The notes beneath the pieces were generated by a model, which worked only from the letters and a program-made list of their open reading frames with translations, was not told where the DNA came from and did not search any database. Both the position numbers and the translations under genes were made by a program. Positions 1,326 to 53,777 of a stretch of DNA of 64,000 nucleotides are shown here, one piece after another (position 1 is the first letter of the stretch; every line of letters starts with the position of its first letter). Where the stretch lies: the sequence record NZ_CP085281.1. One strand, written 5' to 3'. The stretch is from a plasmid.

Positions 1326-1736
1326 ATGTTGTCGGTTGTGGGTGTTACGTTGCGGACGAACGCGAACATCGCTTTCCAGTGTGCGTATCACGTGGTGTGG
1401 TGCCCGAAGTACCGGCGCAGTGTGATCGGTGGCCGCATGGAGGCGCGGCTCAAAGAGATCATCGCCGAGGTGATCGCAGAGAAGGGGGCATGGATGATCG
1501 AACTCGAAACCATGCCCGACCATGTGCACCTGCTGGTGGAGGTGGATCCGCAGTACGGGGTGCACAAGCTGGTCAAGGCCATCAAGGGCCGCTCGTCACG
1601 TCTGCTGCGTGAGGAATTTCCGTGGTTGAAGTCGCGATTGCCGTCGCTGTGGACGAACTCGTATTTCGTCGCCACCATCGGGGGAGCCCCGTTGTCGGTG
1701 ATCAAACGGTACGTCGAGACGCAAAAGGACCGTTGA
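1326..1736 (+). CDS. tnpA: IS200/IS605 family transposase TnpA (Y1 HUH transposase)
   Basis: 136 aa; 'YHVVWCPKYRR' and 'HVHLLV' (HuH) motifs and C-terminal tyrosine region typical of IS200 TnpA. Confidence 0.9.
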   Translation: MLSVVGVTLRTNANIAFQCAYHVVWCPKYRRSVIGGRMEARLKEIIAEVIAEKGAWMIELETMPDHVHLLVEVDPQYGVHKLVKAIKGRSSRLLREEFPWLKSRLPSLWTNSYFVATIGGAPLSVIKRYVETQKDR

Positions 1737-1739
1737 TTC

Positions 1740-2993
1740 ATGTTGACGGGCAGGCGGTTTCGGGTCGAGTTCACCGGCGAGCAGGCTCAGTTCGCCGAAC
1801 AGATCGGCGCGGCCTGCCGGGCGGTGTGGAACACCGGCCTGGAGCAGCGCCGGGAGTACCGGCGCCGCGGCGCGTGGATGAACTACGGGCCCCAGGCCAA
1901 AGAACTGGCTGACGCTAAGACCGAGCATCCGTGGCTCAAAGACGTTCCGGGGCACTGCCTGCAGCAGACGTTGATGGATCTGGACAAGGCCTGCCGCGCG
2001 CACGGCACTTGGAAGGTGCATTGGCGCTCAGGCCGACGATGGGCGCCGTCGTTCCGGTTCCCCGAGGGCAACAAGATGGCGGTAGAGAAGCTCAACCGAC
2101 GCCATGGCCGGATCAAGTTGCCCAAGCTCGGCTGGGTGAAGTTCCGCCAGACGCGCAGTCTGGTTGGTGAAACCATCCGGTCGGCCACCTTGACTCGGGA
2201 AGGCGGCCGGCATTGGTTCCTGTCGCTGCTGGTCGACGATGGCGCCGGCAGTCCGGCCGCTCACACGATGCCGGGGACGGCTGTCGGGGTTGATCGTGGT
2301 GTCGCGGTGGCGATCGCGACCAGCGGCGGCGACCTGATCGACCGCGTGTTCCTCAGCGCCGCTGAGCGGCGTCGCGTCGCGACGTTGCAGCGCAAGCTGT
2401 CTCGGTGCGCGAAGGGATCGGCCAACCGCGCCAAGGCGCGGTCCGCGCTGGCACAGGTTCGGGCCCGGGAACGCCGCCGCCGCCAAGAATTTTGCGCCCA
2501 GACCGCTCACCGGCTCGCGGCCGCCCATGCGGTAGTGGTGCTGGAAGATTTGAAGACCCGCAACATGACCCGTACGGCGAAAGGAACCTTGGATCAGCCC
2601 GGCCTCAACGTGAAAGCCAAGTCCGGGCTCAACCGCGCCATCCTGGCCAAAGGATGGCATCAGTTCGCGTTGGCACTGTCCTCAGCGGCCCGGTACACCG
2701 GGACCGCTGTGGTGACGGTGCCGGCGCCGTACACGTCGCAACGCTGCTCGCAGTGTCAGCAGGTGGACCCGAAATCCCGCGAGAGCCAAGCGGTATTCCG
2801 GTGCACCCACTGCTCGCACCACGAGCATGCGGACGTCAACGCCGCCAAGAACATTTTGGCCGCAGGGCTTGCGGTCACCGCCTGCCAAGACCAACCCCGG
2901 CCCACGGGCAAGGAACGGTCGCCGAAGCAGGAACCAGCAGGAAACCGCGAGGAATTACTGCTCCAACACCCTCACCGCACACCCGCGGCGTGA
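1740..2993 (+). CDS. tnpB: IS605 OrfB / TnpB (RuvC-like, Zn-finger; RNA-guided nuclease family)
   Basis: 417 aa; C-terminal 'CSQCQQVD...CTHCSHHEHADVNAAKNI' zinc finger and RuvC-III motif typical of TnpB; immediately downstream of tnpA. Confidence 0.9.
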   Translation: MLTGRRFRVEFTGEQAQFAEQIGAACRAVWNTGLEQRREYRRRGAWMNYGPQAKELADAKTEHPWLKDVPGHCLQQTLMDLDKACRAHGTWKVHWRSGRRWAPSFRFPEGNKMAVEKLNRRHGRIKLPKLGWVKFRQTRSLVGETIRSATLTREGGRHWFLSLLVDDGAGSPAAHTMPGTAVGVDRGVAVAIATSGGDLIDRVFLSAAERRRVATLQRKLSRCAKGSANRAKARSALAQVRARERRRRQEFCAQTAHRLAAAHAVVVLEDLKTRNMTRTAKGTLDQPGLNVKAKSGLNRAILAKGWHQFALALSSAARYTGTAVVTVPAPYTSQRCSQCQQVDPKSRESQAVFRCTHCSHHEHADVNAAKNILAAGLAVTACQDQPRPTGKERSPKQEPAGNREELLLQHPHRTPAA

Positions 2994-3281: not shown

Positions 3282-3545
3282 ATGCCAACGACCCGCCCGC
3301 GCCACTTCGTAACCGAGACAGACGACCTCGCGTCAGCCCTGGACCGGGCAGCCGAACGCTGGCCAGGAGTGAGCCGTCCCCAGCTCTTGGTGCGCCTGGC
3401 CATGGAAGGCGATCGCGCGGCCACCGCGGCGCGGGAGGACTTGCGGGCGCGGCGGCTGAGAGCAATTGAGGAGCTGAGCGGCGCACTGACTGGGATTTAT
3501 GAGCCCGGGTACTTGGAGGATCTGCGGGCGGATTGGCCGGCGTGA
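3282..3545 (+). CDS. vapB: antitoxin of VapBC-type TA pair (VapB-like)
   Basis: 87 aa; stop overlaps the downstream PIN gene start (GTGA at 3542..3545). Confidence 0.6.
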   Translation: MPTTRPRHFVTETDDLASALDRAAERWPGVSRPQLLVRLAMEGDRAATAAREDLRARRLRAIEELSGALTGIYEPGYLEDLRADWPA

Positions 3546-3943
3546 CTGTCGTCGTGGACACCTCGGTGCTGATTGCATTCTTCAACAGCAAGGATGCCCA
3601 TCATCAGTCGGCGAAGGACGTGCTGGCGCAGGTGGCCGATGAGGCTCTGGTGGCAAGTTCAATGACATGGGCCGAGGTGCTGGCCGGACCGGCACGCAGC
3701 GGTGAAGAGTCTGTTCAGACGGCGTTGTCTGCGTTGGCGCAACTCGAGATTTACGAGGAAGCCTTTCCTCGTGACGTGGCCGTGCGGCTGGCTTGGCTTC
3801 GAGCGGAAACGGGTTTGAAGATGCCCGATTGCTGCGTCCTGCTGGCAGCTGAGACCGCGCAGGCGGATTCGGTCGCAACCTTCGACGGTCAGCTCGCATC
3901 AGCGTCCATTCAGCGCGGCCTGACGGCGCGGACCGGCAAGTAA
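3542..3943 (+). CDS. vapC: PIN-domain ribonuclease toxin VapC
   Basis: N-terminal 'VVVDTSVLIAF' with conserved Asp, and the remaining acidic residues of the PIN fold; about 134 aa; GTG start overlapping antitoxin stop. Confidence 0.8.
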   Translation: MTVVVDTSVLIAFFNSKDAHHQSAKDVLAQVADEALVASSMTWAEVLAGPARSGEESVQTALSALAQLEIYEEAFPRDVAVRLAWLRAETGLKMPDCCVLLAAETAQADSVATFDGQLASASIQRGLTARTGK

Positions 3944-7392: not shown

Positions 7393-8111
7393 CAGCCGCT
7401 GGCTGCTCCTTGAGCGCCGTCTTGCGCGGTGCCCTCCTGGGGCCAGGATCCTGGAGTCGGGTTATCGCCGGGGACATGTCATCGCCGCTGGTCAGCACGC
7501 TGCCGCGCCTGTGGCAGCGGCGGCATCGACGATCTTCGGACCCGGGCGCGAGTCAACGTTCTGCCAGAAACGCTGACGGTCCTCGGGTGCTGAGCCGGCC
7601 GTAGGTCTCCTGAGTGGCCAGCTGCAACGCAGTGTCGCCGCGGCCGCGGTACGCCGGGCTGCGGAGATCGTCGATGCCGCCGGGAGGGTGGTCGCCTCCT
7701 CCATCTGGTTTTTGGTCGTCTACTCAAGAAGTACCTGCGCCGACCGGTGTTTCCGTCAATTCGATGTGGGCGAATTTCACCGGTGGCGAGTCGGCAGGGG
7801 TGTCGTTGCGCGCTGCTAGCGTGGATTTCGACGTCCTCCTCCCCCCGAGGACGTTCCCCGCGCCCCGGTCGCCCTCCCCCCTGGCGGCCGGGGCGCATCA
7901 CGTTTCAGCCCGGTCGGCGAGGCCTTCAGACGGTTCCGCGTGCTTACACTGGGCCCATCGCCACGCACGGCGGCGTGAATCCCGGCATCGACTGCAGCCG
8001 CCCACATCGGCCAGTCACGTCAGACCGGGACAAGACCCACCGGGTTCCGTGTCACTACCCAGCAAAGAGACTTCCGCGCAGATGTGGGGCGACGCGGAGG
8101 ATTTACTTTGG

Positions 8112-8948: not shown

Positions 8949-9206
8949 TCAGTAGTGGTAGCGAGCCTTGAGGATCTTCACCTCGTCGTTGTCGGCGCGG
9001 TAGACCAGCCGATGCTCATCGTCTATCCGCCGCGACCAGTAGCCCGACAGGTCACCCTTCAACGGCTCCGGCTTCCCGATGCCATCGAACGGATCCCGCT
9101 GAATCTCGTTGATCAGGCGCACGATTCGGCGTGCCATCTTGCGATCTGCGGCCAGCCAGTACTGGAAATCCTCCCAACCGTCCGGGTCGAAGTGAATGCT
9201 TCTCAC
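8949..9206 (-). CDS. yoeB: YoeB/Txe-family toxin (RelE/ParE superfamily)
   Basis: 85 aa; 'W.DYLYW...[23 protein letters not shown]...Y.Y' matches the YoeB signature; overlaps upstream antitoxin by ATGA. Confidence 0.85.
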
Positions 9207-9496
9207 TCCTGGCCGCCGGCCAGCTTCCGAATCTCTTCGATCGTCGTGGCATGCACACCGGAGTCTGAACCTCGCGCCCTATCTCGCGCGACAGCATCCA
9301 TCAAGCGGCGTGCGTTCTCGGGGGACCGGAGCAGGTAGACCGTCTCTTGCCAGGAGTCGTAGTCGTCGGCGGACATGAGCACCGCGTCACCAGCCTTGGA
9401 GGTGATGCGGACCGGTTCGTGATCCGTGTTGACCTGCTCCAACAGTGGAAACAGGCGCTGACGTGCTTCACTGGCGCTGATCGACACCTTCCTCAC
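9203..9496 (-). CDS. yefM: YefM/Phd-family antitoxin
   Basis: 97 aa; GTG start at 9496 with GGAG RBS; '[18 protein letters not shown]...[16 protein letters not shown]' Phd/YefM fold signature. Confidence 0.8.
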
Positions 9497-9562
9497 CTCA
9501 CTCCGTCTCGTACGGCTTTCCTGTACCAGTACAGTACGGCATTCTGGCCTGAGAGGCTGGCT

Positions 9563-10618
9563 ATGTTCTCGTCGGTTTCGCGCCTGGCGCGCATGGTCTG
9601 TTCGAAGGATCCGCGGGCGATGCCGTGGTCCTGCGGGAATGGGTACCGTCGATCGGTGGCGGCTGCGCGTTCGGTGGTGCGCCGGCGGTCGACGCCGGGG
9701 CCGATGTTGGCGACCTTGGGTCCGCCGCCGTTGGGTGACCGGTGGTCGGTGGAGTGGAAGTTTGATGGCCAGCGGGCCTCGGTGATCGTCACGGGTGACG
9801 AGGTGATTGTGTTCTCCCGCAACGGTTCTGACGTGTCTGGCACGTTCCCGGAGCTTTCTGCAGTCGGGGCGGCGGTCGGCGGGCGGTCCGTGGTGTTGGA
9901 CGGTGAAATCGTGGCGCTCGACGGGGACGGTCGGCCGTCGTTCACGCGGTTGCAGCGACGCTGGCCTCAGCAGCGTCGGCCGCGCGCGGAGCTGTTGCGG
10001 GCGGTTCCGGTGCGGTTGATGGCGTTCGACGTGTTGAGCGTCGATGGGCGTGACCTGACCGATGAGCCTCTTGAGCGGCGCCGTGAGGTGCTGGAGTCGT
10101 TGGTGGTCGAGGGGTCGTCGGTGTTGACGGTGCCGAAGGCGTTCGTCGGGGTGCCGGCGCCGGACATGCTGGCGGTAGCGGAAGAACACCTGATGGAGGG
10201 CATCGTCGCAAAGGCCCTGGACTCGCCGTACCGGGAAGGGCGCTCACCGTGGTGGGTGAAGAGCCCGGTCCGCCAGACCGCCGAGCTGGTGGTCGTCGCC
10301 TACGCCGGCCCACCCGGACAGGTCCGCGCATTGCTGTTAGCCGGGCACAACGAGGCCGGGTTCCTGGAGGTGGCCGGCCAAGTGGGCACCGGGTTCAGTG
10401 CAGCGATGCGCCGGCACCTGGGTGGGCTGTTGGCGCCAATTGAGCGTGACTCCCCCAGTGTGGCCAATGATGTTGGCGCGCAGGGATGGCGGTGGGTGGA
10501 GCCGCTGTACGTTGGGGAGGTCGCGTTTCGCGAATACGCTCCCGGGAGAGGTCTGCGGCACGCTTCGTGGAAGGGCTTGCGGGATGCGGATCCGATGACC
10601 GCGGCGCTCCCGACGTAG
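9563..10618 (+). CDS. ATP-dependent DNA ligase (LigC / LigD ligase-domain type)
   Basis: adenylation motif I 'KFDGQR', 'FDVL..DG.DL', C-terminal 'EGIVAK...SPY.EGRS..WVK'; ATG 9563 with GAGAGG RBS gives about 351 aa; the 5' ORF extension to 9347 overlaps yefM on the other strand and is rejected. Confidence 0.75.
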   Translation: MFSSVSRLARMVCSKDPRAMPWSCGNGYRRSVAAARSVVRRRSTPGPMLATLGPPPLGDRWSVEWKFDGQRASVIVTGDEVIVFSRNGSDVSGTFPELSAVGAAVGGRSVVLDGEIVALDGDGRPSFTRLQRRWPQQRRPRAELLRAVPVRLMAFDVLSVDGRDLTDEPLERRREVLESLVVEGSSVLTVPKAFVGVPAPDMLAVAEEHLMEGIVAKALDSPYREGRSPWWVKSPVRQTAELVVVAYAGPPGQVRALLLAGHNEAGFLEVAGQVGTGFSAAMRRHLGGLLAPIERDSPSVANDVGAQGWRWVEPLYVGEVAFREYAPGRGLRHASWKGLRDADPMTAALPT

Positions 10619-10668: not shown

Positions 10669-11355
10669 CTACGCTCGGCGTGAGTGGCCGAACTCTTCGA
10701 TGAGGTGGTCGACGAACAGTGGCACTTCTTGGGTGGCTGGGGCCTGCCAGACTTGGTCGAAGGGTCCGTTACCGGGTTCGATGTTGATTTCGATGGTGAC
10801 CGCGCCCGCGGATTTGGCGATCGCCGCGAATTGGTTCGCTGGGTACACCGTTCCGGAAGTGCCGACGGCGACGAAAATGTCGGCTGCGCTGAGCTTCTCG
10901 GTGACGTGATCGAGGCCGATCGTGCGTTCCCCGAACCACACGACGTGGGGGCGCCAGTGCCGGTCTGTCTCGGCGACGTCATGGCGCCAGTCAAGTATTT
11001 CACCTGTGTCGACATGGCGGATCTTTGACAGTTCACCGTGCATTGCAGTGATGCGAAGGCTCCCGGCGCGCTGATGCAAGTCGTCGATGTTCTGCGTGAC
11101 GAGATGGATCTGGTCTCCCAGCGCGCGTTCGAGCCGTGCCAGTGCGTGATGAGCTGCGTTGGGTTGGGCCTGGGCCATCTGTCGGCGCAGGCGGTTGTAG
11201 AAACGCTGCACCAGCTCCGGGTTGGCGGCGAACCCCTCGGGAGTGGCTACATCTTGGACTCGGTGGCCCTCCCACATGCCGGTCGGGCCGCGGAACGTCG
11301 GCAGTCCTGATTCGGCGCTGATGCCCGCGCCGGTCAGCACCACAATGCGGGGCAC
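10669..11355 (-). CDS. Sir2-family NAD-dependent protein deacylase-like (no Zn-ribbon cysteines)
   Basis: 228 aa; 'GAGISAESGLPTFRG', 'QNIDDLH', catalytic 'HG', 'VVWFGE' and 'VGTSG.VYP' motifs; no CxxC...CxxC zinc module seen. Confidence 0.8.
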   Translation of the reverse strand: MPRIVVLTGAGISAESGLPTFRGPTGMWEGHRVQDVATPEGFAANPELVQRFYNRLRRQMAQAQPNAAHHALARLERALGDQIHLVTQNIDDLHQRAGSLRITAMHGELSKIRHVDTGEILDWRHDVAETDRHWRPHVVWFGERTIGLDHVTEKLSAADIFVAVGTSGTVYPANQFAAIAKSAGAVTIEINIEPGNGPFDQVWQAPATQEVPLFVDHLIEEFGHSRRA

Positions 11356-13772: not shown

Positions 13773-14156
13773 GTGAGGGTGATTCTTCGGACGCCGGCCG
13801 AACTGGTCGCCGAGTACGACCTTCCCGACGTGGACAGCGGGGCGAGCGACGAGGAGATCCTGGCGGCCGCGGCCGCGGCCGAGCCGATTCGGCGATCCGA
13901 GCCCGAGGTCGTCGGTGAGACCTATGTCTACGCCCGCGGGTTGGATGACTTGGCGCAGCAGGGACGGCGCCTGATTCAGGCTGACTCGCGGCTCGACAGC
14001 GAGAAGAAGGCCGCCCAGCAGCTGGCGCGGCGGTACCTGGCGCAGGGCCGCAGCAAGCGCGACATCGCCCAGACACTGCACATCACGCGCAAGACGTTGG
14101 ACGCCTGGTTGGGCGACACTGAACCGCGCGAGCCCGCGCGAAGTGATGAATCATGA
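13773..14156 (+). CDS. hypothetical protein with C-terminal HTH
   Basis: 127 aa; 'RSKRDIAQTLHITRKTLDAWL' HTH-like. Confidence 0.45.
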   Translation: MRVILRTPAELVAEYDLPDVDSGASDEEILAAAAAAEPIRRSEPEVVGETYVYARGLDDLAQQGRRLIQADSRLDSEKKAAQQLARRYLAQGRSKRDIAQTLHITRKTLDAWLGDTEPREPARSDES

Positions 14157-14230
14157 CCGGGCCGTGGCAGCACCGATACCACCGGTTGAGCTGGACCAAT
14201 CGCACGTCCCCGCGTTGCTACTATCGCTGC

Positions 14231-14896
14231 ATGGCCGACGGGCAGGTGTGGGGCCGGCTGCGTGAGGTGGCTGCCGGCCAATTCGGCCTGTTCACCGCAG
14301 CCCAGGCCCGCCAGCATGGAGTGGCCCGCTACGAGCTGACCCGCCGGATCGACTCCGGGGAGCTGTTTCGGGCCCACCACGGTGTGTACGGGTTCACCGC
14401 GGACTCCGCGACGATGTTCGCGTTCGAGGACTGGGCTGCGCAGTGGCTGGCCTTGCGTCCGGAGGCGGACATCGAGCAGCGGCGAGCCGATCCGGATTGC
14501 GTCATCAGTCACGACAGCGCGGCGGTGATCCAGGAGTTGGGCACGATCGTGGCCCGGGGCTTGTTCTTGACCGGGCCGCGGCGCATCAACGCCCGCTCGG
14601 CGCGGGTGCACGCCTATCGCCGCGATATCGGTGAGCGTGGTGTCGACTGGGACGTAGTGAAGGGTCTTCCGGTGTCCACTCCGGGGCGGATCATCGCCGA
14701 CCTGGCCCGTGATGATCTCGATGGTGCCCATCAGGGTGCGGTGATCGCCGACGTTCTCGACGAGGGCCTGCTGACCCTGGACGAGGTGGGTGCTCGCCTG
14801 GATCCGTTCGCGCACCGGTGGGGTGAGTCCGGCGGGGCGGAGTTGGCGCGGCGTTTCCTGGCTGACGCTGGGCGTGCGCTGCCGCTGTCGGTATAG
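14231..14896 (+). CDS. abiEi: AbiEi-like antitoxin / transcriptional regulator (type IV TA)
   Basis: N-terminal 'GLFTAAQARQHGVARYELTRRIDSGELFRAHHGVYGF' winged-helix typical of AbiEi; immediately upstream of a nucleotidyltransferase gene. Confidence 0.7.
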   Translation: MADGQVWGRLREVAAGQFGLFTAAQARQHGVARYELTRRIDSGELFRAHHGVYGFTADSATMFAFEDWAAQWLALRPEADIEQRRADPDCVISHDSAAVIQELGTIVARGLFLTGPRRINARSARVHAYRRDIGERGVDWDVVKGLPVSTPGRIIADLARDDLDGAHQGAVIADVLDEGLLTLDEVGARLDPFAHRWGESGGAELARRFLADAGRALPLSV

Positions 14897-14905
14897 CGCA
14901 GGAGC

Positions 14906-15934
14906 ATGTGCAAGGCCAGCAATGAGCCCGGTGGGCCGAAGCGATGCTCGGCCGACATGCGGGCGCGGGCGCAGGAGTCCCACGACCGGGTCGCGGCGTT
15001 GGAGCAGCGGCAGCGTGAGATCGAGGAGATGCTCGATGCGCGCCGCACCTACGGTTCGGAGGGGGCGTTTCGGGCGGCGCTCAATGCGCGGATCCGCGAT
15101 ATCGCGCGGCGCAGCGGCAGTGATTCTGCTGAGATTGCGCGGCGGTTTGCGTTGCAGCAGTTCGTGTCCCGGCTTTTCGATCGTGATCCGGAGTCGTGGT
15201 TGGTGACCGGCGGGACGGCATTGCAGTTTCGGACGACGGAGGCGCGGGCGACCGCGGACCTGGATCTGGCGGTGACCCGCGGGGTGGAGGACTTGACGGA
15301 GGCACTGACTGCGGCGGCGAGCCGGCGGGCTGGGGAGCACGGTGAGTTCGTGGTGGCGGTGAGTCCCGGTAGTGGTCCTGGTGCGTTCACCGGGAAGATC
15401 ACCTACATGCTGGGGGGCTCGCGGTTCGCGGTGGCCAAGTTGGATGTTGCTGCGGGGCGGGCGTTTCCGTTCGAGCCGGACACGTTGGTTCCTGATCCGG
15501 TTGTGCCGATCGATGATGTGCGGCCGATGTCGAGAGTCCGTACGTATGCGGTGGCCTCGCACCTGGCCGACAAGGTCGCCGCGATGTATGAGGTGCATGG
15601 CAGCAGCGGTGCGTCCCCGTCGACGCGTTCGCATGACCTGGCCGACATCGTGATCCTGTCGCGGTGTGCGCGGGTCGACGCCGAGGAGTTGCGGGGTGCG
15701 GTGCGCCAGCAGGAGCAGCGCCGTGGGGTCATGGTGCCCACTCCCCTGACGCTGCCTTCTGAGCAGTGGCGGCGCAGCTATCCGTCTCGGGTGGCTGATG
15801 CGGGGTTGCCGGCCGAGCTGCGCGACGCTGATGCGGCGCTGGCTGAGGCCGACCGGTTCGTCGGCGCGGTCCTCGATGGCCGGATTTCATCGGGCACGTG
15901 GGATCCCGATCGCCGATCCTGGACACCGAAATAG
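14906..15934 (+). CDS. abiEii: AbiEii/AbiGii-family nucleotidyltransferase toxin (DUF1814)
   Basis: 342 aa; 'LVTGGTALQF...ATADLDLAV' NTase-fold motif (G[GS]x9-13DxD) and C-terminal 'HDLADIV' typical of AbiEii. Confidence 0.8.
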   Translation: MCKASNEPGGPKRCSADMRARAQESHDRVAALEQRQREIEEMLDARRTYGSEGAFRAALNARIRDIARRSGSDSAEIARRFALQQFVSRLFDRDPESWLVTGGTALQFRTTEARATADLDLAVTRGVEDLTEALTAAASRRAGEHGEFVVAVSPGSGPGAFTGKITYMLGGSRFAVAKLDVAAGRAFPFEPDTLVPDPVVPIDDVRPMSRVRTYAVASHLADKVAAMYEVHGSSGASPSTRSHDLADIVILSRCARVDAEELRGAVRQQEQRRGVMVPTPLTLPSEQWRRSYPSRVADAGLPAELRDADAALAEADRFVGAVLDGRISSGTWDPDRRSWTPK

Positions 15935-17924: not shown

Positions 17925-18863
17925 TCAGCTGAGGCTACGCAGGAGCTGGCCCAGGCGTACGAGTCGTTGGCCGGTCGCCAGGCATTTGGGGGCCAGGTGG
18001 GCGCCGCGGCCGTCGGAGAGTTGCTCGGCGAGCGTCGTGGGTTCGCCGGCGGCCAGGACTGCGGTGATCGCCGCCTCCAGATCCAGGAGTACCTGCGCCG
18101 CGGCGCCGGAGCTTGGGGACGTGTCCTCGTCGCTGGTCCGGGTGTTTTTGACGGGATCGCCGGCGGGCGTGGCCGGTGCGGCCGCCGCTGTGGCGCCGAC
18201 CGCTGGGGATGTGTCATCAGGGCTGGTAGGGGTGTTTTCGTCGTCGCCCCATGGCGGGGCGCTGGATGTGGATTCCTGGCCGCCGCCGGTGGTGATGTCG
18301 AACGGTGGCGCGTCGACGTCGACGTCGTCGGGGATCTCCGCGGGGACCAGGGCGCCCAGTGGGGATGCCGGCGGGGTCGATGATTCGTGCAGGGGGCCGA
18401 AGCCTGGGGCGGTGGAGCGCTGGGTGACGGTGTCGATGAGGTCGCGCAGGGCGTCGGTTTGGGCGTCGGGGTCGGTGAGTCCCTCCAGCACCGCGGGGGC
18501 TTGTTCGATGACGACGCGGGCGCCGGTGACCCCGAGGCGGGCGACGTCGGAGGAGGTGACCGGGATGCGGGTTCCGGGGGCGGTTAGTTCCTGCAGGGGC
18601 AGGATCAGGCCGACGATGCCCTGCTGGTAGCGGCGGGCGTTGGAGGCTGCGCATCCGAGTTGGTCTTGGACGAAGGCGGTGAAGCCGGTGTAGGGGCGGC
18701 CGGCGCCGTCGTTGATGTAGCGCCAGTCCTCGTCGCGGTAGATCTCGGCGAGGACCTCGAACGCCGTCTGGAAGGCGTTGTGTAGCAGCTGGGCTCGGCG
18801 CAGGGCGCGTTCTTGGCGGGTTTCGATGACGCCGGCTTCTTGGAAGGCGAGGTCGGTGCTCAT
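17925..18863 (-). CDS. acidic hypothetical protein (ParB-like?); contains two copies of the 28-bp repeat
   Basis: start MSTDLAF at 18863 (ATGA overlap with upstream gene); N-terminal helical DNA-binding-like region; Asp/Pro/Thr-rich tail. Confidence 0.45.
   Translation of the reverse strand: MSTDLAFQEAGVIETRQERALRRAQLLHNAFQTAFEVLAEIYRDEDWRYINDGAGRPYTGFTAFVQDQLGCAASNARRYQQGIVGLILPLQELTAPGTRIPVTSSDVARLGVTGARVVIEQAPAVLEGLTDPDAQTDALRDLIDTVTQRSTAPGFGPLHESSTPPASPLGALVPAEIPDDVDVDAPPFDITTGGGQESTSSAPPWGDDENTPTSPDDTSPAVGATAAAAPATPAGDPVKNTRTSDEDTSPSSGAAAQVLLDLEAAITAVLAAGEPTTLAEQLSDGRGAHLAPKCLATGQRLVRLGQLLRSLS
18116..18145 (+). repeat. 28-bp repeat copy d (GGGGACGTGTCCTCGTCGCTGGTCCGGGTG), intragenic
   Basis: inside 17925..18863 (-); encodes ...TSDEDTSP. 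Confidence 0.5.
18205..18234 (+). repeat. 28-bp repeat copy e (GGGGATGTGTCATCAGGGCTGGTAGGGGTG), intragenic
   Basis: inside 17925..18863 (-); encodes ...TSPDDTSP. Confidence 0.5.
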
Positions 18864-19564
18864 CGTGGGGTCCGCTGCTGGATCGCGGCGTCGATGGGTT
18901 CGGCGGCGTCGTCGAGGAAGCTGCGCAGACGCTTCTGGGTGGCCGGGTCGGCCCATGCGGTGGCGATGACGTCGGCCAGGTCGTCGGCTAGGACGCCGAG
19001 TTCGGCGGTGACGTCCAGGCGGAGCCGCTTGCGCGTTTGCAGGTCGGGCATGAGCCGCAGCAGCGTGATGGTGACGGTGTTGGTGTCGGTCGAGGCCGGG
19101 CTGTTGCGGAAGGTGGCCATGATGCGCTGTTCGACGAGCGTTTTGGCCAGGGGGTCGCGGAAGGAGCCGACGGGGATGACGGCCAGGGGGCCGTCGGTGT
19201 CGCCGGCGTTGCCGCGGGAGAGTCGCTCTTCGTACTCCTCGACGGCCATGGCCAGCCCGGACAGGTAGATGGTCTTGAGGGCTTTGCGTTCGTGCTCGTC
19301 GCGGGTGAGTTCGAAGCGGCGGAACGTTTCGGCGGCGCCGTCGGGAGTGGAGGCGTAGGCGATCGCGTCGGCGTCGCGGCGGCGGCGGGCTTTGTCCAGT
19401 TTGGCCTGCACCTTGTCGAGTTCGCGCAGGAGTTCTTCGCGGGTCGGTTCCTGGGTCATGGTGTCAGTCATTGTCTCGCTCCTGGGCTTCGTCGACGCCG
19501 AAGAACTGCTCGGCGGCTGCGGTGGCGGCTGCTTCGGTGTCGCCGGTGAAGGTGTGTCGTTCAC
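18860..19564 (-). CDS. hypothetical protein (start uncertain, possibly 19471)
   Basis: 234-aa ORF; Pro/Ser-rich N-terminus probably untranslated; helical Arg/Glu-rich body. Confidence 0.4.
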   Translation of the reverse strand: MNDTPSPATPKQPPPQPPSSSSASTKPRSETMTDTMTQEPTREELLRELDKVQAKLDKARRRRDADAIAYASTPDGAAETFRRFELTRDEHERKALKTIYLSGLAMAVEEYEERLSRGNAGDTDGPLAVIPVGSFRDPLAKTLVEQRIMATFRNSPASTDTNTVTITLLRLMPDLQTRKRLRLDVTAELGVLADDLADVIATAWADPATQKRLRSFLDDAAEPIDAAIQQRTPR

Positions 19565-19634
19565 CGGTGTCGGGGTCTTCGATCTCGATCTCGACGGCGG
19601 CTGGTTGACCGGGGGTGTTCATTGGTGTGCCCTT

Positions 19635-20738
19635 CTATGGCATGACGGCCGGGGCGGCCTGTGGGAGTGCGCCGATGATGGACTTGCAGGCCTTGTTGAC
19701 CCGGTCGGCGGTCTGCTGCACCTTCTTGGGGTCCCCCTTGGCCCAGCCGTCGATGTAGGCGAATGCGCTGCCTCCGGGGGTGAGGCCGTAGTGGCGGCCG
19801 ATGACGTAGGCGACGCTTTCGGCCTCGACCTCCATCGTGGGGCGCTGGCCGCCGGGGCCGTTGTGGTAGTCGTGGTGGCGTTCCATGTGGCCCATCTCGA
19901 TGTGCGCCAATTCGTGGGCGAGCACCATGGCTTGGTGGGCGTCGGAGTAGCGGGTGCTGACGACGACCTTCTTGGTGGGCTTGTCCTGGGTGTAGCCCTC
20001 GGGTCCGTTCTCGGGTAGCTCGACCCGTTCGACGGTGTAGCCGTGGGCGGTGATCTGGTTCTCGAGTTCGGTGTGCATCTCAGGTGGTGCGACGCCGGTT
20101 TCGCGGGTGTAGGTGACCTCGGGGCGCTGCGGCAGCGGCGGGCCGGTGGTGTCGGATACGTCGTAGACCGGGACGCTGAGCCAGCCGGTCATGACGTCTT
20201 CCTCGGTGCCGTCGTCCTTCTTGCGCTTCTTGATCTGGGGTGCGCGGATCCAGATCGCCTTCGAGCCGGCGATCAGGTCGCGGTTGAACTTCTTGTTCCA
20301 CACCTTCTTCAGGCCGCCGACGAAGGTCGCATCGGGGCGCTGCATGCGCACCAGCAGCTGGTTCTGCAGCGAGTAGTGGTGGAACTGGCTGGCGTAGTGC
20401 AGCCAGTCCTGCCACTGCTCGGCGGTGTTGAGGTTGGCGATCGCGTCGTCGATCTCGCGGCGGATGTCCTCGATGCGGGTCGTCTTGTCGGCGAAGCTGA
20501 CCTTCTTGGACCGCGGCGCGGGCGCCGGCGCTTCTGCTGGTGTCGCGTCGGCGACTGCCGGTGCTGGCGCGGGATGGCCCGCATCGGCCAGAGCTGCCAT
20601 CAGAACGGACTCGGCTTCTTCGAGGACCTCGACGGCGTGGGCTGAGTGACTGTAGGCGATGCGGGTGTCCCCGGAGCAGCGGCGTGGCCCTCCTGGGTCG
20701 GTCGTGGCGCGACACACGATGAAGTACCTCCTCGGCAT
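19635..20738 (-). CDS. ardC: ArdC-like anti-restriction protein (ssDNA-binding N-domain + zincin metalloprotease domain); start uncertain
   Basis: 'AEQWQDWLHYASQFHHYSLQNQLLVRMQRPDATFVGGLKKVW' ArdC-N domain; 'HELAHIEMGH' HExxH motif. Confidence 0.7.
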   Translation of the reverse strand: MPRRYFIVCRATTDPGGPRRCSGDTRIAYSHSAHAVEVLEEAESVLMAALADAGHPAPAPAVADATPAEAPAPAPRSKKVSFADKTTRIEDIRREIDDAIANLNTAEQWQDWLHYASQFHHYSLQNQLLVRMQRPDATFVGGLKKVWNKKFNRDLIAGSKAIWIRAPQIKKRKKDDGTEEDVMTGWLSVPVYDVSDTTGPPLPQRPEVTYTRETGVAPPEMHTELENQITAHGYTVERVELPENGPEGYTQDKPTKKVVVSTRYSDAHQAMVLAHELAHIEMGHMERHHDYHNGPGGQRPTMEVEAESVAYVIGRHYGLTPGGSAFAYIDGWAKGDPKKVQQTADRVNKACKSIIGALPQAAPAVMP

Positions 20739-20815
20739 GGGACGCGGGGACCGCTACCGAAATAGCGCCAGCCCGGCAAAGGAGAGCTGGTGTGCGTTCC
20801 TACTTCTTGAAGTAC

Positions 20816-20850
20816 CGGCGGGGACCCCGTTTTCCGTCGCTCCTGGACCG
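20816..20850 (+). promoter_or_regulatory. conserved motif CTTGAAGTACCGGCGGGGACCCCGTTTTCCGTCGC
   Basis: about 80% identical copy at 44348..44382; partial third copy (GAAGTACC..GGGGACC) at 20721..20760; both full copies lie just upstream of minus-strand operon starts. Confidence 0.45.
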
Positions 20851-20912
20851 AACTTTTTCCGCCTCGACGCGCCCTCCCCCATCACCGCTGCATCGGCCGC
20901 GCTTCAACGCTG

Positions 20913-20946
20913 TGTATACCGATATGCCATTTTTGTGTATAGTGGT
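20913..20946 (+). promoter_or_regulatory. promoter/operator-like motif GTGTATACCGATATGCCATTTTTGTGTATAGTGG
   Basis: second copy of the 13632 motif; 25 nt upstream of the ADP-ribosylglycohydrolase start; TATAGT -10-like hexamer. Confidence 0.45.
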
Positions 20947-20970
20947 GCCCATAAGAAAGGTTGGTGCATC

Positions 20971-22047
20971 ATGACGAGACGAACTGCTACCCAGGCTCGC
21001 TACCGCAACGCCCTCATCGGGTTGGCCGCCGGCGACGCGTGGGGCTACCAGGTCGAATTCCGTAAGTACGCCTGCATGCCCGCCTACCCGGTGCCCGCAC
21101 CCAAGAAGATCTGGCGGATCTCCGACGACACCCAGATGACGCTTGCCCTGCACGACGCCCTCGTCGACGTCGCCGGCCAGCTCGACGACATCGACGCGGT
21201 AACCAAGGCCATCACCGAGCGCTTCCTCGAATGGCAGGTCGACCGCGACAACAACCGTGCGCCGGGGGCCACGTGCATGGGGTCCCTTACACGTCTGCGG
21301 CGCGGCATTCAGTGGCACGAAGAGGCTGGCGCGCTGGCCCGGCCTGGCTGCGGGGCCGTGATGCGGCTCGCGCCGGCGGCCCTGTGCCCGGAGCCGGTGT
21401 GGCGGGGCATCACTGCGTTGCAGGCGGTGCTGACCCACAAGCATCCGCGGGCGATCGCGTCCGCCCTGGTGCTCAGTGACGCCATCCGGTCTGCGACCAC
21501 GGTGCGTGGGCATTTTCTCGAACATGCCATCAGCGCGGCGATGTCGGTCGTTTCGGGTGAAAGCCCGTGGCTGCGTGACGATTACCTGCTGCGGGTACTT
21601 TCACCGATGACCTCGGACATTTCCGGCCTGCTGGCCGCGGGCGTCAAGGACGTCCTGCTCGATGCGCTCCTGGACGCCTACGCCGTCAAGCAGGAGCTGA
21701 CCACGCTGACCCCAGCGGAGTACGGCGACCCCTGCGTGGGAATCGGTGAGGGCTGGGAGTCGGGCACGGCGACCGCCCTCGGGCTGCTGGTGGCCGACAT
21801 GGCCACCGCGCCCGGGCGGCGTCGGGCTCCCCTCAACGGGCGCGAGGCGCTGGCGTGGGCGGCAACGAGCAATGGCGACTCCGACTCGATCGCCAGCATC
21901 GCCGGCGCGGTCATCGGCGCCGCGCACACCGGGTCGAGCTATTGGGCCGGGGTGAAGATGGCCCCCCGGTTCGAGCCGCGGTACGCCAAGGCGCTGAGGG
22001 CGGCTCCTGCTGCAGCTGTTGGCTTTCTCGCGGCGAGCGCGGGGTGA
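20971..22047 (+). CDS. ADP-ribosylglycohydrolase family protein (DraG/ARH-like)
   Basis: 358 aa; 'GLAAGDAWG', 'SDDTQMTLAL', 'SNGDSDSIASIAGAVIGAAHTG' diagnostic of the ADP-ribosylglycohydrolase fold. Confidence 0.8.
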   Translation: MTRRTATQARYRNALIGLAAGDAWGYQVEFRKYACMPAYPVPAPKKIWRISDDTQMTLALHDALVDVAGQLDDIDAVTKAITERFLEWQVDRDNNRAPGATCMGSLTRLRRGIQWHEEAGALARPGCGAVMRLAPAALCPEPVWRGITALQAVLTHKHPRAIASALVLSDAIRSATTVRGHFLEHAISAAMSVVSGESPWLRDDYLLRVLSPMTSDISGLLAAGVKDVLLDALLDAYAVKQELTTLTPAEYGDPCVGIGEGWESGTATALGLLVADMATAPGRRRAPLNGREALAWAATSNGDSDSIASIAGAVIGAAHTGSSYWAGVKMAPRFEPRYAKALRAAPAAAVGFLAASAG

Positions 22048-22661
22048 GTCTGGTGCGACCAGGTGCATCGGTGGGCAAGTCCGCGAAGATCCGGGACGCT
22101 GCGCTTGCGGAGTTCGCGGCGCGTGGTGTTGAAGCCACCTCGTTGCGGCAGGTGGCGGCTAGGGGTGGTGTCTCAATCGGGTTGGTCCAGCATCACTTTG
22201 GTAGCAAAGCCGGTCTCGTCGAGGCTGTCGATGCGCACGTGGCCGACGTGGTTGGCGAGGTGCTGGTCTCTGCTCCTGAAGCGGTGACGGTCGAAGCGTT
22301 TGGTGATCAGTTGATGGCGCTGCTGACGCAACACAGCGTGGTCGCGGAGTACCTCGCTCGGGCGATGGCGGACAAGACGCCCTTCGGGTCAATGATTTTC
22401 GATCGGTTGATCGCGATGGGCGTTGCGCGGTGGAAGTGCCGCAGCGGCGCCGGCCGAACCTGTGCCGATGTGGACACCGTGTGGGCGGTGATGAATGTGG
22501 TGGTGCTCTTCATTGGCACCATCTTGTTGCGACCTCACGTTGAGCGCCAGCTGTCCGCACCGTTGTTATCGCCTGACCAGGTGGTCCGGTGGAGGTCCGC
22601 CGTCGCCGCATTGACAGCCAAAGGGGTATCTCTGACACGCATGCCGCGCGGCGCGGAATAG
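22044..22661 (+). CDS. TetR-family transcriptional regulator
   Basis: GTG start overlapping upstream stop (GTGA); N-terminal 'RDAALAEFAARGVEATSLRQVAARGGVSIGLVQHHFGSK' TetR HTH. Confidence 0.75.
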   Translation: MSLVRPGASVGKSAKIRDAALAEFAARGVEATSLRQVAARGGVSIGLVQHHFGSKAGLVEAVDAHVADVVGEVLVSAPEAVTVEAFGDQLMALLTQHSVVAEYLARAMADKTPFGSMIFDRLIAMGVARWKCRSGAGRTCADVDTVWAVMNVVVLFIGTILLRPHVERQLSAPLLSPDQVVRWRSAVAALTAKGVSLTRMPRGAE

Positions 22662-22912
22662 TTTCCCTTACGTCCCTGAGCCGTGCCTTCATCGGGCGCT
22701 CAGTCATTGCGGGCAAGGCCGCGGCTTAGGCTGCGCGGCGAGCCAGGTCTTCGCGGATCCGCCAGTCCTGACCGTTGATGGCCCAGCGGTCGTGTCGGGT
22801 GCGTCGCTTGTTGGCGCTGGCATGCTTGGTGCTGCATGGCCCGCACAGACACCAGGCTTGGGCGCCGTTGTGGGCGCGGAAGACGATTTCGCCGGCGTCG
22901 CGGGCTTGCGTT

Positions 22913-23269
22913 TCAGTGGTGTAGCTCATGTCGTCGTTCCCTCGTTCGCGTAGAAGGTCCTGGGTCCGATTGCACCCGTGTCCAGGGTTGCGTCGGTGCC
23001 GATCGCCAGGCGTACCAGCCGGTGGGTAGGTCGGCCAATTGCGACACGGCGGGCTCGTTGGCCACCACGCAAGCCAGGCAGGCCACGCGTCCGTCCTCGC
23101 GTTGCACCGTTGTGCCGCAGAGGAACTGCCAATCACCATCGACGTCGTGGTGCACCTCGATGATTGGATGTCCCTCGATGACCGGCCGAGTGGTGATCAC
23201 TGCCCTGTTCGGTGGGTCGTCGAACAGCCACGAATCGATCCCGTGGTCGTGCCCGGCGATGCGCCTCAT
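22913..23269 (-). CDS. hypothetical protein
   Basis: 118-aa ORF; overlaps other frames so uncertain. Confidence 0.3.
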   Translation of the reverse strand: MRRIAGHDHGIDSWLFDDPPNRAVITTRPVIEGHPIIEVHHDVDGDWQFLCGTTVQREDGRVACLACVVANEPAVSQLADLPTGWYAWRSAPTQPWTRVQSDPGPSTRTRERRHELHH

Positions 23270-52362: not shown

Positions 52363-53777
52363 GGGAGCGTCCCGGGGAGTGGTGTAAGTGATGGCGGCGT
52401 GTCGGTCCCTGACGTAAGAGGGCCATCGCGTGAGTCTCTGTGGTGAAACGACCAAGAATCACTACCGAGAGGAACATCGCGATGGCCCTGGACCAGTCTG
52501 CCTTGCTGGAGGTGCTCGACGCACTGCGCACCGCCGATGCCGGTGAGCGGATCACTCAAGCCGCCGAAACGATCTACCAAGCCTTGATCGACGCGGAGTT
52601 GACCGCGTTCATCGGGGCTTCTCCCCATGAGCGCACCGAGACCCGCTCCAATCAGCGCAACGGCTCGCGTCCGCGCACGCTGTCCACGGTCGCAGGGGAC
52701 CTGGAACTGCGGATTCCCAAGCTGCGCACCGGGTCATTTTTCCCGGCGTTGTTGGAGCGGCGTCGCCGGGTCGATCAGTGCTTGTTCGCGGTGGTGATGG
52801 AGGCCTACCTGCACGGCACCTCCACCCGCAAGGTCGACGATCTGGTCAAGGCACTGGGTACCGATACCGGGATCTCCAAAAGCGAGGTCAGCCGGATCTG
52901 CAAAGACCTCGACACCGAGGTCGCGGCCTTCCGGGACCGGCCGTTGGGTGATCAGCGCTTTCCGTATGTCTTCCTCGACGCCACCTACTGCAAGGCCCGG
53001 GTGAATCATCGGGTGGTGTCGCAGGCGGTGGTCATCGCCACCGGGGTGGCCGCTGACGGGCGCCGCGAGGTACTGGGCTTTGAGGTCGGAGACTCCGAGG
53101 ACGGGGCGTTCTGGACCGCGTTTTTGCGGTCGTTGAAATCCCGCGGTCTGGCCGGAGTCCAACTGGTCATCTCCGATGCCCATGCCGGACTGCGCAGTGC
53201 CATTGACGCCGTGCTGATCGGGGCCGCCTGGCAGCGGTGTCGAGTGCACTTCCTGCGCAACGTGCTCGCCCAAGTGCCCAAGGGCTCCGCAGAGATGGTC
53301 GCCGCCGCGATCCGCACCGTCTTCGCCCAGCCAGACGCCGAGCACGTGCGCGAACAACTCGACACCATCGCCGGCATGCTCGGCCGCCAGTTCCCCAAGG
53401 TCGAAACCATGTTGCGCGAGGCCGCCGCCGACATCACCGCCTTCGCCGACTTCCCGGTGGCCCACTGGAAAAAGATCTGGTCAACCAACCCACTGGAGCG
53501 ATTGAACAAGGAAATCAAACGCCGCACCGACGTCGTCGGCGTGTTCCCCAACCCCGCCGCGCTGTTACGGCTGGCCGGCTCGGTACTCGTTGAGGCCCAC
53601 GACGAATGGCAGGTCGCCGACAAGCGCTACCTCTCCGAGACCAGCCTCGCTCTGCTCGACGTCAGTGACCAAAGTGCCGAAACCATTGCCCCCACAGCCG
53701 CTCTCACGGCATAGTGGCTACCACAGAGCCACACGCGGACACGCGACCGCTCTTACACCACTCCACGGGACGTGACC
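52363..53777 (+). mobile_element. IS256-family insertion sequence, copy 1 (1415 bp)
   Basis: imperfect terminal IRs GGGAGCGTCCCGGGGAGTGGTGTAAG / revcomp GGTCACGTCCCGTGGAGTGGTGTAAG; mutator-type transposase; flanked by 9-bp direct repeat; identical to copy 2. Confidence 0.9.
52440..53714 (+). CDS. IS256-family (mutator-type) transposase
   Basis: 424 aa; 'FLDATYCKARVNHRVVSQAVVIATGVAADGRREVLGF', 'LVISDAHAGL', 'WQRCRVHFLRNVL', 'NPLERLNKEIKRRT' conserved IS256 transposase blocks. Confidence 0.9.
   Translation: MVKRPRITTERNIAMALDQSALLEVLDALRTADAGERITQAAETIYQALIDAELTAFIGASPHERTETRSNQRNGSRPRTLSTVAGDLELRIPKLRTGSFFPALLERRRRVDQCLFAVVMEAYLHGTSTRKVDDLVKALGTDTGISKSEVSRICKDLDTEVAAFRDRPLGDQRFPYVFLDATYCKARVNHRVVSQAVVIATGVAADGRREVLGFEVGDSEDGAFWTAFLRSLKSRGLAGVQLVISDAHAGLRSAIDAVLIGAAWQRCRVHFLRNVLAQVPKGSAEMVAAAIRTVFAQPDAEHVREQLDTIAGMLGRQFPKVETMLREAAADITAFADFPVAHWKKIWSTNPLERLNKEIKRRTDVVGVFPNPAALLRLAGSVLVEAHDEWQVADKRYLSETSLALLDVSDQSAETIAPTAALTA

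Follow-up and report, generated by a model that had tools for sequence, protein, structure and literature searches.

The locus and its plasmid

The stretch analysed here, referred to as the window, comprises 64,000 nucleotides of the plasmid record NZ_CP085281.1, and the locus under study (positions 19,635 to 22,661) contains an ArdC-like gene, a divergently transcribed gene for a DraG-like ADP-ribosylhydrolase (ARH) and a gene for a TetR-family regulator. The reading favoured below takes ARH for the orphaned eraser of an ADP-ribosyltransferase (ART) of the same plasmid family, the ART gene itself having been deleted in this plasmid down to a remnant. The genes described in an initial annotation of the locus lie where it had placed them; as it reported, the ArdC-like gene and ARH diverge and the ARH stop overlaps the TetR gene. 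The gap between the divergent genes measures 253 bp, and the stop codon of ARH (TGA, 22045-22047) and the start codon of the TetR gene (GTG, 22044-22046) overlap within the tetranucleotide GTGA.

19635-20717, minus strand: ArdC-like gene, 360 amino acids, start GTG at 20717 assigned from homologue N-termini and gene calls
20971-22047 (ATG to TGA), plus strand: DraG-like ADP-ribosylhydrolase (ARH), 358 amino acids, PF03747 at 4.2e-38
22044-22661, plus strand: TetR-family regulator, 205 amino acids, PF00440 at 5e-14 over residues 16-62

The G+C content of the window is 64-70%, and the best annotated match, covering 68% of a 4.5-kb query at 87% identity, is plasmid p1-JPH1 of Mycobacterium avium. 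The element is thus a conjugative plasmid of Mycobacterium and not an integrative and conjugative element (ICE), as no integrase or other ICE features were seen in the window; of the earlier description as an ICE, the mobile nature stands while the class does not. Genes linked to type VII secretion systems (T7SSs) and genes resembling those of type IV secretion systems (T4SSs) begin at ~23.4 kb, including FtsK/VirD4-like, VirB4-like AAA_10, TcpC and SLT genes, and a backbone of this kind has been described for mycobacterial plasmids that depend on type IV as well as type VII secretion (PMC4173767). Nothing recognisable as a relaxase or an oriT was found across the 64-kb window.

A DraG-type hydrolase kept by selection

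The ARH protein carries the motifs AAGDAWG and SNGDSDSIASIAG and scores 132 bits with PF03747, for which the cut-off is 26. The GDAWG and SNGDSDSIASIAG motifs to which the initial annotation had pointed, together with the HExxH of the ArdC-like neighbour, are all present, and the catalytic motifs of ARH are intact. Residues S51-D52-D53-T54 and D303-S304-D305-S306, which correspond to the binuclear metal site, are invariant in 17 family members. The AlphaFold2 model (predicted local distance difference test, pLDDT, of 94) displays an all-alpha fold that Foldseek relates with a probability of 1.0 to ARH1, ARH3 and DraG, while in a profile comparison with proteins of solved structure the nearest ones are the arginine-specific enzymes ARH1 (1e-15), DraG (2e-14) and Tri1 (1e-8). 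The protein is a metal-dependent DraG-type hydrolase for mono-ADP-ribose, which, judging from these sequence neighbours, it most likely removes from arginine side chains. A substrate assignment based on structure was dropped, Foldseek giving no separation of ARH1-like from ARH3-like proteins.

With the DraG equivalog model TIGR02662 the protein reaches 38 bits, the cut-off being 337, and with the Tri1 equivalog model it likewise stays far under the cut-off; no nif or draT genes occur in the window or in the related loci, and Pfam detects in ARH no macrodomain of the kind found in DarG. The ARH family has ~210 members nearly restricted to Mycobacteriales, and all close orthologues lie on plasmids or phages. 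The window gene is intact and under purifying selection, with a ratio of nonsynonymous to synonymous substitution rates (dN/dS) of 0.11-0.14 (about 0.13) against seven relatives.

Homologues with 34-46% identity stand alone in actinophages, among them phages of Gordonia and Mycobacterium and prophages of cluster MabR (L053 4995-6005; L054 3809-5002), and in Rhodococcus phages too. A search with the ART as query returned no phage match.

The transferase partner and its loss

Thirty-two orthologous ARH loci, 12 from Mycobacteriaceae and 20 from other taxa, were collected in a scan with one genome per species. A gene for an ART of 700-800 amino acids is placed directly upstream of ARH in 14 of the 20 non-mycobacterial loci (Nocardiaceae, Dietzia and others), the C-terminus of its product being an ADP-ribosyltransferase exoenzyme domain (PF03496/PF01129). 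The same association appears among the plasmids of PLSDB, where 36 of the 39 that bear ARH also encode the ART, which typically ends ~300 bp before ARH on the same strand. In sequence the ART retains R, S-x-S/T and E-x-E, motifs of the sort typical for arginine-directed R-S-E ARTs.

On plasmids of Rhodococcus, Prescottella and Dietzia the two genes are operonic; in Mycobacterium they lie in one plasmid arm. There the ART is a 570-amino-acid version encoded 10-13 kb from ARH on one replicon, as observed for M. avium p1-JPH1, M. rhodesiae JS60 and Mycobacterium sp. NPDC006124. On Rhodococcus and Prescottella plasmids the ART, a small helix-turn-helix (HTH)-like open reading frame (ORF) and ARH form a conserved operon (L046 11257-14837; L047 11524-14859), with pVAPN1571 and pNSL1 as annotated examples; on the P. 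equi virulence plasmid pVAPN1571, the ART-ARH operon lies directly upstream of the MobF relaxase gene and downstream of a conserved cutinase-family gene.

Within the window, only a fragment of the ART gene was detected.

7511-7694, minus strand: ART gene remnant (pseudogene fragment) of 185 bp, 85% identical by blastn to M. avium ART codons (L001 2749-2934) and 66% identical by tblastn over 41 amino acids

This remnant occupies the syntenic place, 13 kb from ARH, and has lost the 5' end and the entire catalytic domain, while the corresponding gene of M. avium p1-JPH1 (L001 1746-3455) is intact. No second ART was found in the 64-kb window, either by tblastn or with the ART hidden Markov model (HMM), which in all six frames matched the remnant only. 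The ART gene has therefore been deleted in this plasmid down to a remnant. Adjacency to an R-S-E ART, the arrangement of the Imm-ARG/Tri1 type, is found for the orthologues and is absent at the window ARH, so that the latter is an orphan member by descent and not by its present context.

The ArdC-like gene and its operon

The longest ORF of the ArdC-like gene (19635-20738, minus strand) would encode 367 amino acids, and translation from the GTG at 20717 gives a protein that begins MCRATTDPGGPRRCS, i.e. M-C-R-A-T-T-D-P-G-G-P-R-R-C-S. Its parts follow one another as an MC..GGPRRC tag, a helix, a disordered linker, an ArdC-N-like domain for binding of single-stranded DNA (ssDNA) and an HExxH metalloprotease domain of the IrrE/M78 type. 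The protease motif AHELAHIEMGH is present, Pfam Peptidase_M78 matches at 1.6e-6, and a PHROG metalloprotease family matches at 6e-10. Residues H267-E268-x-x-H271 and the downstream E295/E297 (alignment numbering) are invariant among the homologues, which corresponds to a zincin with a downstream glutamate ligand whose subtype is IrrE/M78-like and not PF18818.

Taken alone, the window protein stays below the threshold of Pfam ArdC-N (PF08401), and a single-sequence search of the PDB sequences returned no match. Nonetheless, homologues at 40-60% identity carry PF08401 together with PF06114, and a profile built from 20 sequences matches R388 ArdC (6i89/6sna) over both domains, from residue 75, with E=1.2e-8. 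In the AlphaFold2 model (pLDDT 82), the only significant PDB matches by Foldseek are to ArdC, 6i89 being the top one at 1.4e-7. On account of the domains of its homologues, the family profile, the predicted fold and the invariant HExxH and glutamates, the minus-strand gene is identified by sequence and model as a true ArdC relative, and its description as an ArdC-type protein with an ssDNA-binding N-domain and an HExxH domain is upheld. The combination of ArdC-N and M78 is widespread, being found in more than 1000 PLSDB plasmids from Firmicutes, Actinobacteria and haloarchaea.

The ArdC-like gene heads a four-gene operon.

17925-19622, minus strand: operon-like block of three conserved genes downstream of the ArdC-like gene, encoding 52 (19464-19622), 203 (18860-19471) and 312 (17925-18863) amino acids

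These three genes, for which Pfam, PHROG and PADLOC gave no match, accompany the ArdC-like gene at every mycobacterial locus and in the versions embedded in ESX loci. ARH adjoins the ArdC-like operon in all 12 Mycobacteriaceae loci, mostly in divergent orientation; at L010, L012 and L013 it is co-directional and stands at the end of the operon. On plasmids of M. alvei and of Mycobacterium sp. THAF192 the tagged four-gene operon lies inside an ESX locus, between eccD and PE/PPE-esxBA (L062 5055-7856; L063 4998-7662), and ARH is not present beside it there.

The TetR gene and the variable slot downstream of ARH

No ARH-TetR combination was found at any of the 32 orthologous loci or in the close relatives L055-L061, the exact TetR gene being confined to contigs that are copies of the same plasmid (L050, L051). 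The idea of the initial annotation that ARH and TetR form a unit, which might co-occur with ArdC in other elements, consequently does not survive, and TetR was rejected as a conserved partner of ARH. The closest plasmid-borne TetR, 63% identical, belongs to Mycobacterium sp. JS623 and resides in an unrelated context beside DprA and a C40 peptidase; no TetR equivalog model was passed.

Elsewhere the place downstream of ARH is taken by other genes: an unrelated gene of 225 amino acids in the closest relatives (ARH 93% identical; L055), an 86-amino-acid ORF in M. marinum and small hypothetical genes in M. avium. A variable cargo slot is thereby outlined between ARH and an Rv1815-like serine protease gene (22050-22733; 22913-23269), filled in the window by TetR and an ORF of 118 amino acids. 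Since TetR is confined to the plasmid copies and the slot is otherwise filled, the apparent pair represents a recent local event. The GTGA overlap suggests co-expression of ARH and TetR, and nothing beyond that.

The intergenic region

Two parts can be distinguished in the 253 bp between the divergent genes.

20718-20845, minus strand: 5' leader and promoter region of the ArdC-like gene, with two hairpins and an anti-Shine-Dalgarno segment GGTACTTC facing the Shine-Dalgarno sequence GGAGGTACC
20911-20970, plus strand: promoter-proximal region of ARH, with repeats, a -10-like box and a Shine-Dalgarno sequence

In an alignment of 14 loci hardly any position varies within the ~125 nt upstream of the ArdC-like start, although the plasmids differ by 15-40% elsewhere. 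In the consensus fold of this leader GGTACTTC can pair with the Shine-Dalgarno sequence around two hairpins; 93% of cells are paired, a share that falls to 35-48% on sliding the partners, and just three pairs change on both sides. The leader was rejected as a thermodynamically exceptional structure (folding energy z = -0.13, weak covariation), and no Rfam family matched in the intergenic region.

On the ARH side, direct repeats of TGTGTATA begin at 20911 and 20934, an extended -10-like sequence TGTGTATAGT is located at 20934-20943, and a Shine-Dalgarno sequence GAAAGG (20955-20960) precedes the ARH ATG by 10 nt. A consensus scan of this region found no full sigma-70 promoter, which makes the ARH promoter a putative one. 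In most relatives (L002, L003, L005, L006, L008, L011) a perfect palindrome, ATGTAAAGnnCTTTACAT, stands ~20-40 nt before the ARH start and is a probable operator by its sequence. In the window, L004, L009 and L055 the TGTGTATA direct repeats with a TATAGT box replace this palindrome, and upstream of the window ARH no inverted-repeat or palindromic operator was found. A 60-amino-acid ORF (20792-20974) that ends in ATGA at the ARH start was rejected as a gene, neither frame nor length being kept among relatives; it is unrelated to the small HTH-like ORF that lies between ART and ARH in Rhodococcus.

A shared N-terminal tag

The N-terminal segment of the ArdC-like protein recurs in a second protein of the window, an AbiEii-type nucleotidyltransferase.

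20589-20717, minus strand: region coding for the ArdC-like N-terminal tag (MCRATTDPGGPRRCSGDTR, then a helix)
14906-15034, plus strand: AbiEii tag region
14906-15934, plus strand: AbiEii-type nucleotidyltransferase with the N-terminal tag, Pfam AbiEii at 8e-22
14153-14896: AbiEi partner gene

The tag extends over ~45 residues with the consensus M-C-x-[AS]-x3-P-G-G-P-[RKQ]-R-C-S-G-D-x-R, or in its variant form MC[KRL][AS]xxx-P-GGP[RKQ]RC[SA]GDxR, followed by a helix and a Pro/Ala-rich linker. It is common to the ArdC-like protein, to AbiEii and to the ARTs of M. avium, M. rhodesiae and Dietzia plasmids, with copies in relatives at L001 3327-3455 (minus strand), L048 and L049 from 10001 and L031 from 5517. 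An HMM of the tag module finds exactly two copies in the window, the PADLOC AbiEii models align from residue 47 onward only, and no Pfam model covers the tag.

A library-wide profile search, run on all 569 columns with tag matches chosen by query and target coordinates, retrieved ~55 further cluster representatives, from Mycobacteriales plasmids, that carry the tag at residue 1 in front of varied C-terminal domains. Among them are PD-(D/E)XK nucleases, kinase-like proteins, a DnaQ-like exonuclease, a DUF6782 metallopeptidase, a membrane protein of 733 amino acids and many uncharacterised proteins. The named carriers belong to Mycobacterium, Mycolicibacterium and Rhodococcus plasmids, often those with an ART or an ArdC-like gene. 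A literature search for the tag motif yielded nothing relevant. A like repertoire of domains is held by polyvalent proteins, whose delivery together with invading DNA is assumed (PMC5512222).

As a speculative and rather doubtful proposal, the tag might be a recognition or translocation signal that marks a set of "unbundled polyvalent" effectors to be carried by the T4SS/T7SS conjugation machinery of the plasmid from the donor into the recipient. The ART would then be a delivered effector that modifies the host, and ARH the resident eraser that protects donors and immunises cells holding a related plasmid, amounting to plasmid-plasmid exclusion or immunity based on ADP-ribosylation. The tag may matter more than the ARH finding, as a possible handle on proteins moved by mycobacterial conjugation systems.

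Other genes of the plasmid arm

The ATP-dependent ligase and the sirtuin (Sir2), noted earlier as lying in the same arm as the ArdC-like gene and ARH, are indeed found there.

9347-10618: ATP-dependent ligase gene
10669-11355: Sir2 gene, an ordinary short sirtuin

Compared with the M. avium plasmid, the segment 10594-11848, which holds Sir2 and two small ORFs, is an insertion, and PADLOC gave no defence-type match for Sir2. For these reasons Sir2, which is of the ordinary short type, was rejected as the writer partner of ARH; erasers linked to sirtuins are usually macrodomains. PADLOC likewise returned zero matches for the ArdC-like protein, ARH, TetR and ART.

Besides AbiEi/AbiEii (14153-15934), the arm holds further modules of the addiction type (3282-3943 and 8949-9206), one a VapBC-like pair and the other a toxin of the YoeB family (Pfam 1e-40) preceded by an antitoxin-like ORF. 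An IS200/IS605 tnpA-tnpB element occupies the left end of the window (1326-2993), and in M. avium p1-JPH1 an insertion sequence (IS) element of the same type (L001 13883-15441) sits precisely in the gap that separates the ArdC-like gene from ARH. Two ORFs of 424 amino acids, inverted relative to each other at 52440-53714 (plus strand) and 59756-61030 (minus strand), begin with the same N-terminal sequence, and they look like two IS copies flanking ~6 kb in a composite-transposon-like arrangement. On a related Mycobacterium plasmid an AcrVA2-like gene (PF26125; L049 14169-16052) is situated ~2.5 kb from the ART, which hints that the plasmid arm may accumulate counter-defence genes.

Interpretation of the locus

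The explanation favoured here combines an ArdC relative, an ARH that would act as the orphaned eraser of the plasmid-family ART, an enzymatic immunity protein in the manner of Tre1-Tri1 or DraT-DraG, and a recently inserted TetR, and as a whole it is held with a little better than even confidence. By analogy with R388 ArdC, the ArdC-like protein would most likely protect incoming plasmid DNA from restriction by the recipient. The ARH orthologues are the eraser partners of the plasmid-borne R-S-ExE ART, and the window ARH is most likely an orphan antidote that would undo ADP-ribosylation by the ARTs of related plasmids, whether co-resident or entering by conjugation. The argument for such an antidote is that ARH, in a plasmid whose ART has been deleted, is still intact behind an upstream region of its own and shows purifying selection. 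TetR represents a recent lineage-specific insertion into the variable slot, translationally coupled to ARH, and may autoregulate the two-gene unit.

These proposals accord with published systems. ARH domains are the only known enzymatic immunity class and are strictly associated with R-S-E ART toxins, as described in 2012 (PMC3482391); Tre1-Tri1 and DraT-DraG are writer-eraser pairs (PMC8120803); and erasers that have no coupled writer are predicted to act on the modifications of an extrinsic enzyme (PMC9503650). Since the linkage of ARH and an R-S-E ART is a known arrangement, the window ARH is read as the orphaned eraser of the plasmid-family ART, and the obvious extrinsic source of ADP-ribosylation is the ART of related plasmids. 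The suggestion of the initial annotation that ARH counters ADP-ribosylation thus keeps its part on Arg-ADP-ribosyltransferase toxins, which fit the data; the likely source, nonetheless, is the ART of the same plasmid family and not a host defence. The novelty that it claimed for such a function is not borne out, ARH immunity to R-S-E ARTs having been described in 2012 (PMC3482391) and shown for Tre1-Tri1 (PMC8120803).

Several observations weigh against this explanation. Arginine specificity is taken solely from sequence neighbours, and Foldseek ranks the structures of ARH3, which acts on serine and poly(ADP-ribose) (PAR), level with that of ARH1. In Mycobacterium, ART and ARH are not operonic; an ART-bearing plasmid of M. 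frederiksbergense has no ARH within 10 kb, and five PLSDB plasmids with an ART (counted at E<=1e-30) are without ARH, so that the ART is not obligatorily neutralised by ARH. Alignment offsets indicate that the window ARH is without the N-terminal extension by which Tri1 blocks Tre1. The plasmid continues past the window, the ART negative covering 64 kb. In M. marinum, where the ART arm has been replaced, ARH stays beside the ArdC-like operon, and therefore an ART-independent role fits too. The non-operonic layout and the ART plasmids without ARH weaken a strict toxin/antidote relation and favour keeping a regulatory writer-eraser reading in consideration.

An alternative, rather unlikely in our view, is that ARH serves as an anti-defence or establishment effector, which the recipient would express early, together with ArdC, and which would erase ADP-ribosylation by the host, be it of DNA by DarT-like enzymes, by mRNA-modifying ARTs or by Arg-ART toxins. 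ARH and the ArdC-like operon remain neighbours at ~20 mycobacterial loci, in two different orientations, and this adjacency would agree with such a role, as would the purifying selection that ARH experiences here despite the loss of the ART, the stand-alone homologues without ART in Gordonia, Mycobacterium and Rhodococcus phages, the AcrVA2-like gene in the related plasmid arm and the published logic of orphan erasers (PMC9503650). However, the strongest statistical association of ARH is with a plasmid-encoded ART and with no host system, PADLOC gave no match and no known defence ART target was identified, and the window shows neither a relaxase nor an oriT by which to place a leading region. 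The association with ArdC is not general either: almost none of the more than 1000 plasmids with ArdC-like genes has this ARH, and the operons in ESX loci are without it. Reversal of DarT modification, which the initial annotation had considered, is unlikely, known DarT erasers being macrodomain or NADAR proteins (PMC8120803) while the fold of ARH is DraG-like, with ARH1, DraG and Tri1 as its nearest solved relatives.

ART and ARH could instead form a regulatory switch of the DraT-DraG type for some plasmid or host process (conjugation, T7SS activity or transcription), the lone ARH trimming background or host ADP-ribosylation, and to this we assign a low probability. That the ART sometimes occurs without ARH suggests that it is non-lethal to its carrier, a small HTH-like ORF separates ART and ARH in the Rhodococcus operon, the ART weakly resembles Alt-like ARTs that modify RNA polymerase (PHROG 802, E=3e-4), and the pVAPN pair belongs to a conjugation backbone beside the MobF relaxase. 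Against a switch, no target is known, conflict systems typically use an R-S-E ART and an ARH as toxin and immunity protein (PMC3482391), and an eraser retained without its writer is hard to fit to a dedicated switch.

An ordinary metabolic or housekeeping ARH-TetR pair stranded on a plasmid, whether acting on O-acetyl-ADP-ribose or free ADP-ribose with the sirtuin or in DraG-like nitrogen regulation, is most improbable and largely refuted by the distribution data, for despite distant members (44-49% identity) in ordinary chromosomal contexts of Tsukamurella and a Sir2 gene 10 kb away, no other ARH-TetR pair exists in the 32 loci and close relatives, the close orthologues are all on plasmids or phages, the M. 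avium relative is without the inserted Sir2 block, and the DraG (38 against 337 bits) and Tri1 equivalog scores are far under their cut-offs. The lack of any second ARH-TetR pair and the DraG score also exclude the conserved chromosomal metabolic pair, for instance in DraG-like nitrogen regulation, that the initial annotation had named as its own possible refutation.

With regard to plasmid biology, the ART/ARH module emerges as a part of the backbone that recurs among conjugative plasmids of Mycobacteriales, the Prescottella equi virulence plasmid pVAPN being one of them; the eraser can outlive the writer as an orphan, and mycobacterial T4SS/T7SS plasmids keep this eraser beside an ArdC-like establishment operon. 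If the orphan eraser does guard against the ARTs of incoming plasmids, it would offer a simple, testable case of enzymatic inter-plasmid immunity.

Comparison with known systems

The ArdC of the IncW plasmids R388/pSa (6I89, 6SNA) shares with the window protein the ssDNA-binding N-domain followed by an HExxH metalloprotease, as well as its location on a conjugative plasmid. On the contrary, the two are only ~17% identical, Pfam places the window protease in M78/IrrE and not in MPTase-PolyVal, and the window protein adds an N-terminal tag and linker of ~75 amino acids and heads a four-gene operon that on some plasmids is found within an ESX locus.

Polyvalent proteins and T4 Alt share with the plasmid arm an effector repertoire of ART, ArdC-N with metallopeptidase, Pol-beta-type nucleotidyltransferase and nucleases (PMC5512222). 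Here, unlike there, these are separate proteins with a common short tag in place of one giant fusion, and their delivery is a proposal only.

DarT-DarG likewise combines an ADP-ribosylation toxin with an enzymatic antitoxin. DarG, however, is a macrodomain protein acting on thymidine-linked ADP-ribose in ssDNA, whereas the window ARH has the unrelated DraG fold and the partner of its family is an R-S-E protein ART. DraT-DraG, known from nitrogenase regulation, is an arginine-specific writer-eraser pair, DraG figuring among the best solved matches of ARH (2e-14); it differs in that the window ARH resides on a mobile element that shows no nif or DraT genes in the window, and in the TIGR02662 score already given.

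A close parallel is offered by Tre1-Tri1, ART toxin and ARH immunity protein of the type VI secretion (T6SS) apparatus of Serratia proteamaculans, and by the Imm-ARG class of immunity proteins to polymorphic toxins, in which, as in the ARH family, a DraG-fold hydrolase is coupled to an R-S-E (ExE) ART and an enzymatic eraser shields its carrier. The window ARH differs from Tri1 in having no N-terminal occluding extension, its conserved core starting at residue 9-12 while Tri1 (6dre) aligns from its residue 72. The ART differs from Tre1 in being plasmid-borne, with no recognised T6SS or T7SS toxin-delivery domain. In the window, moreover, this ART is deleted and ARH is left orphaned beside the ArdC-like gene. 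ARH accordingly belongs to a known writer-eraser (ART/ARH) conflict module and is not a new anti-defence invention.

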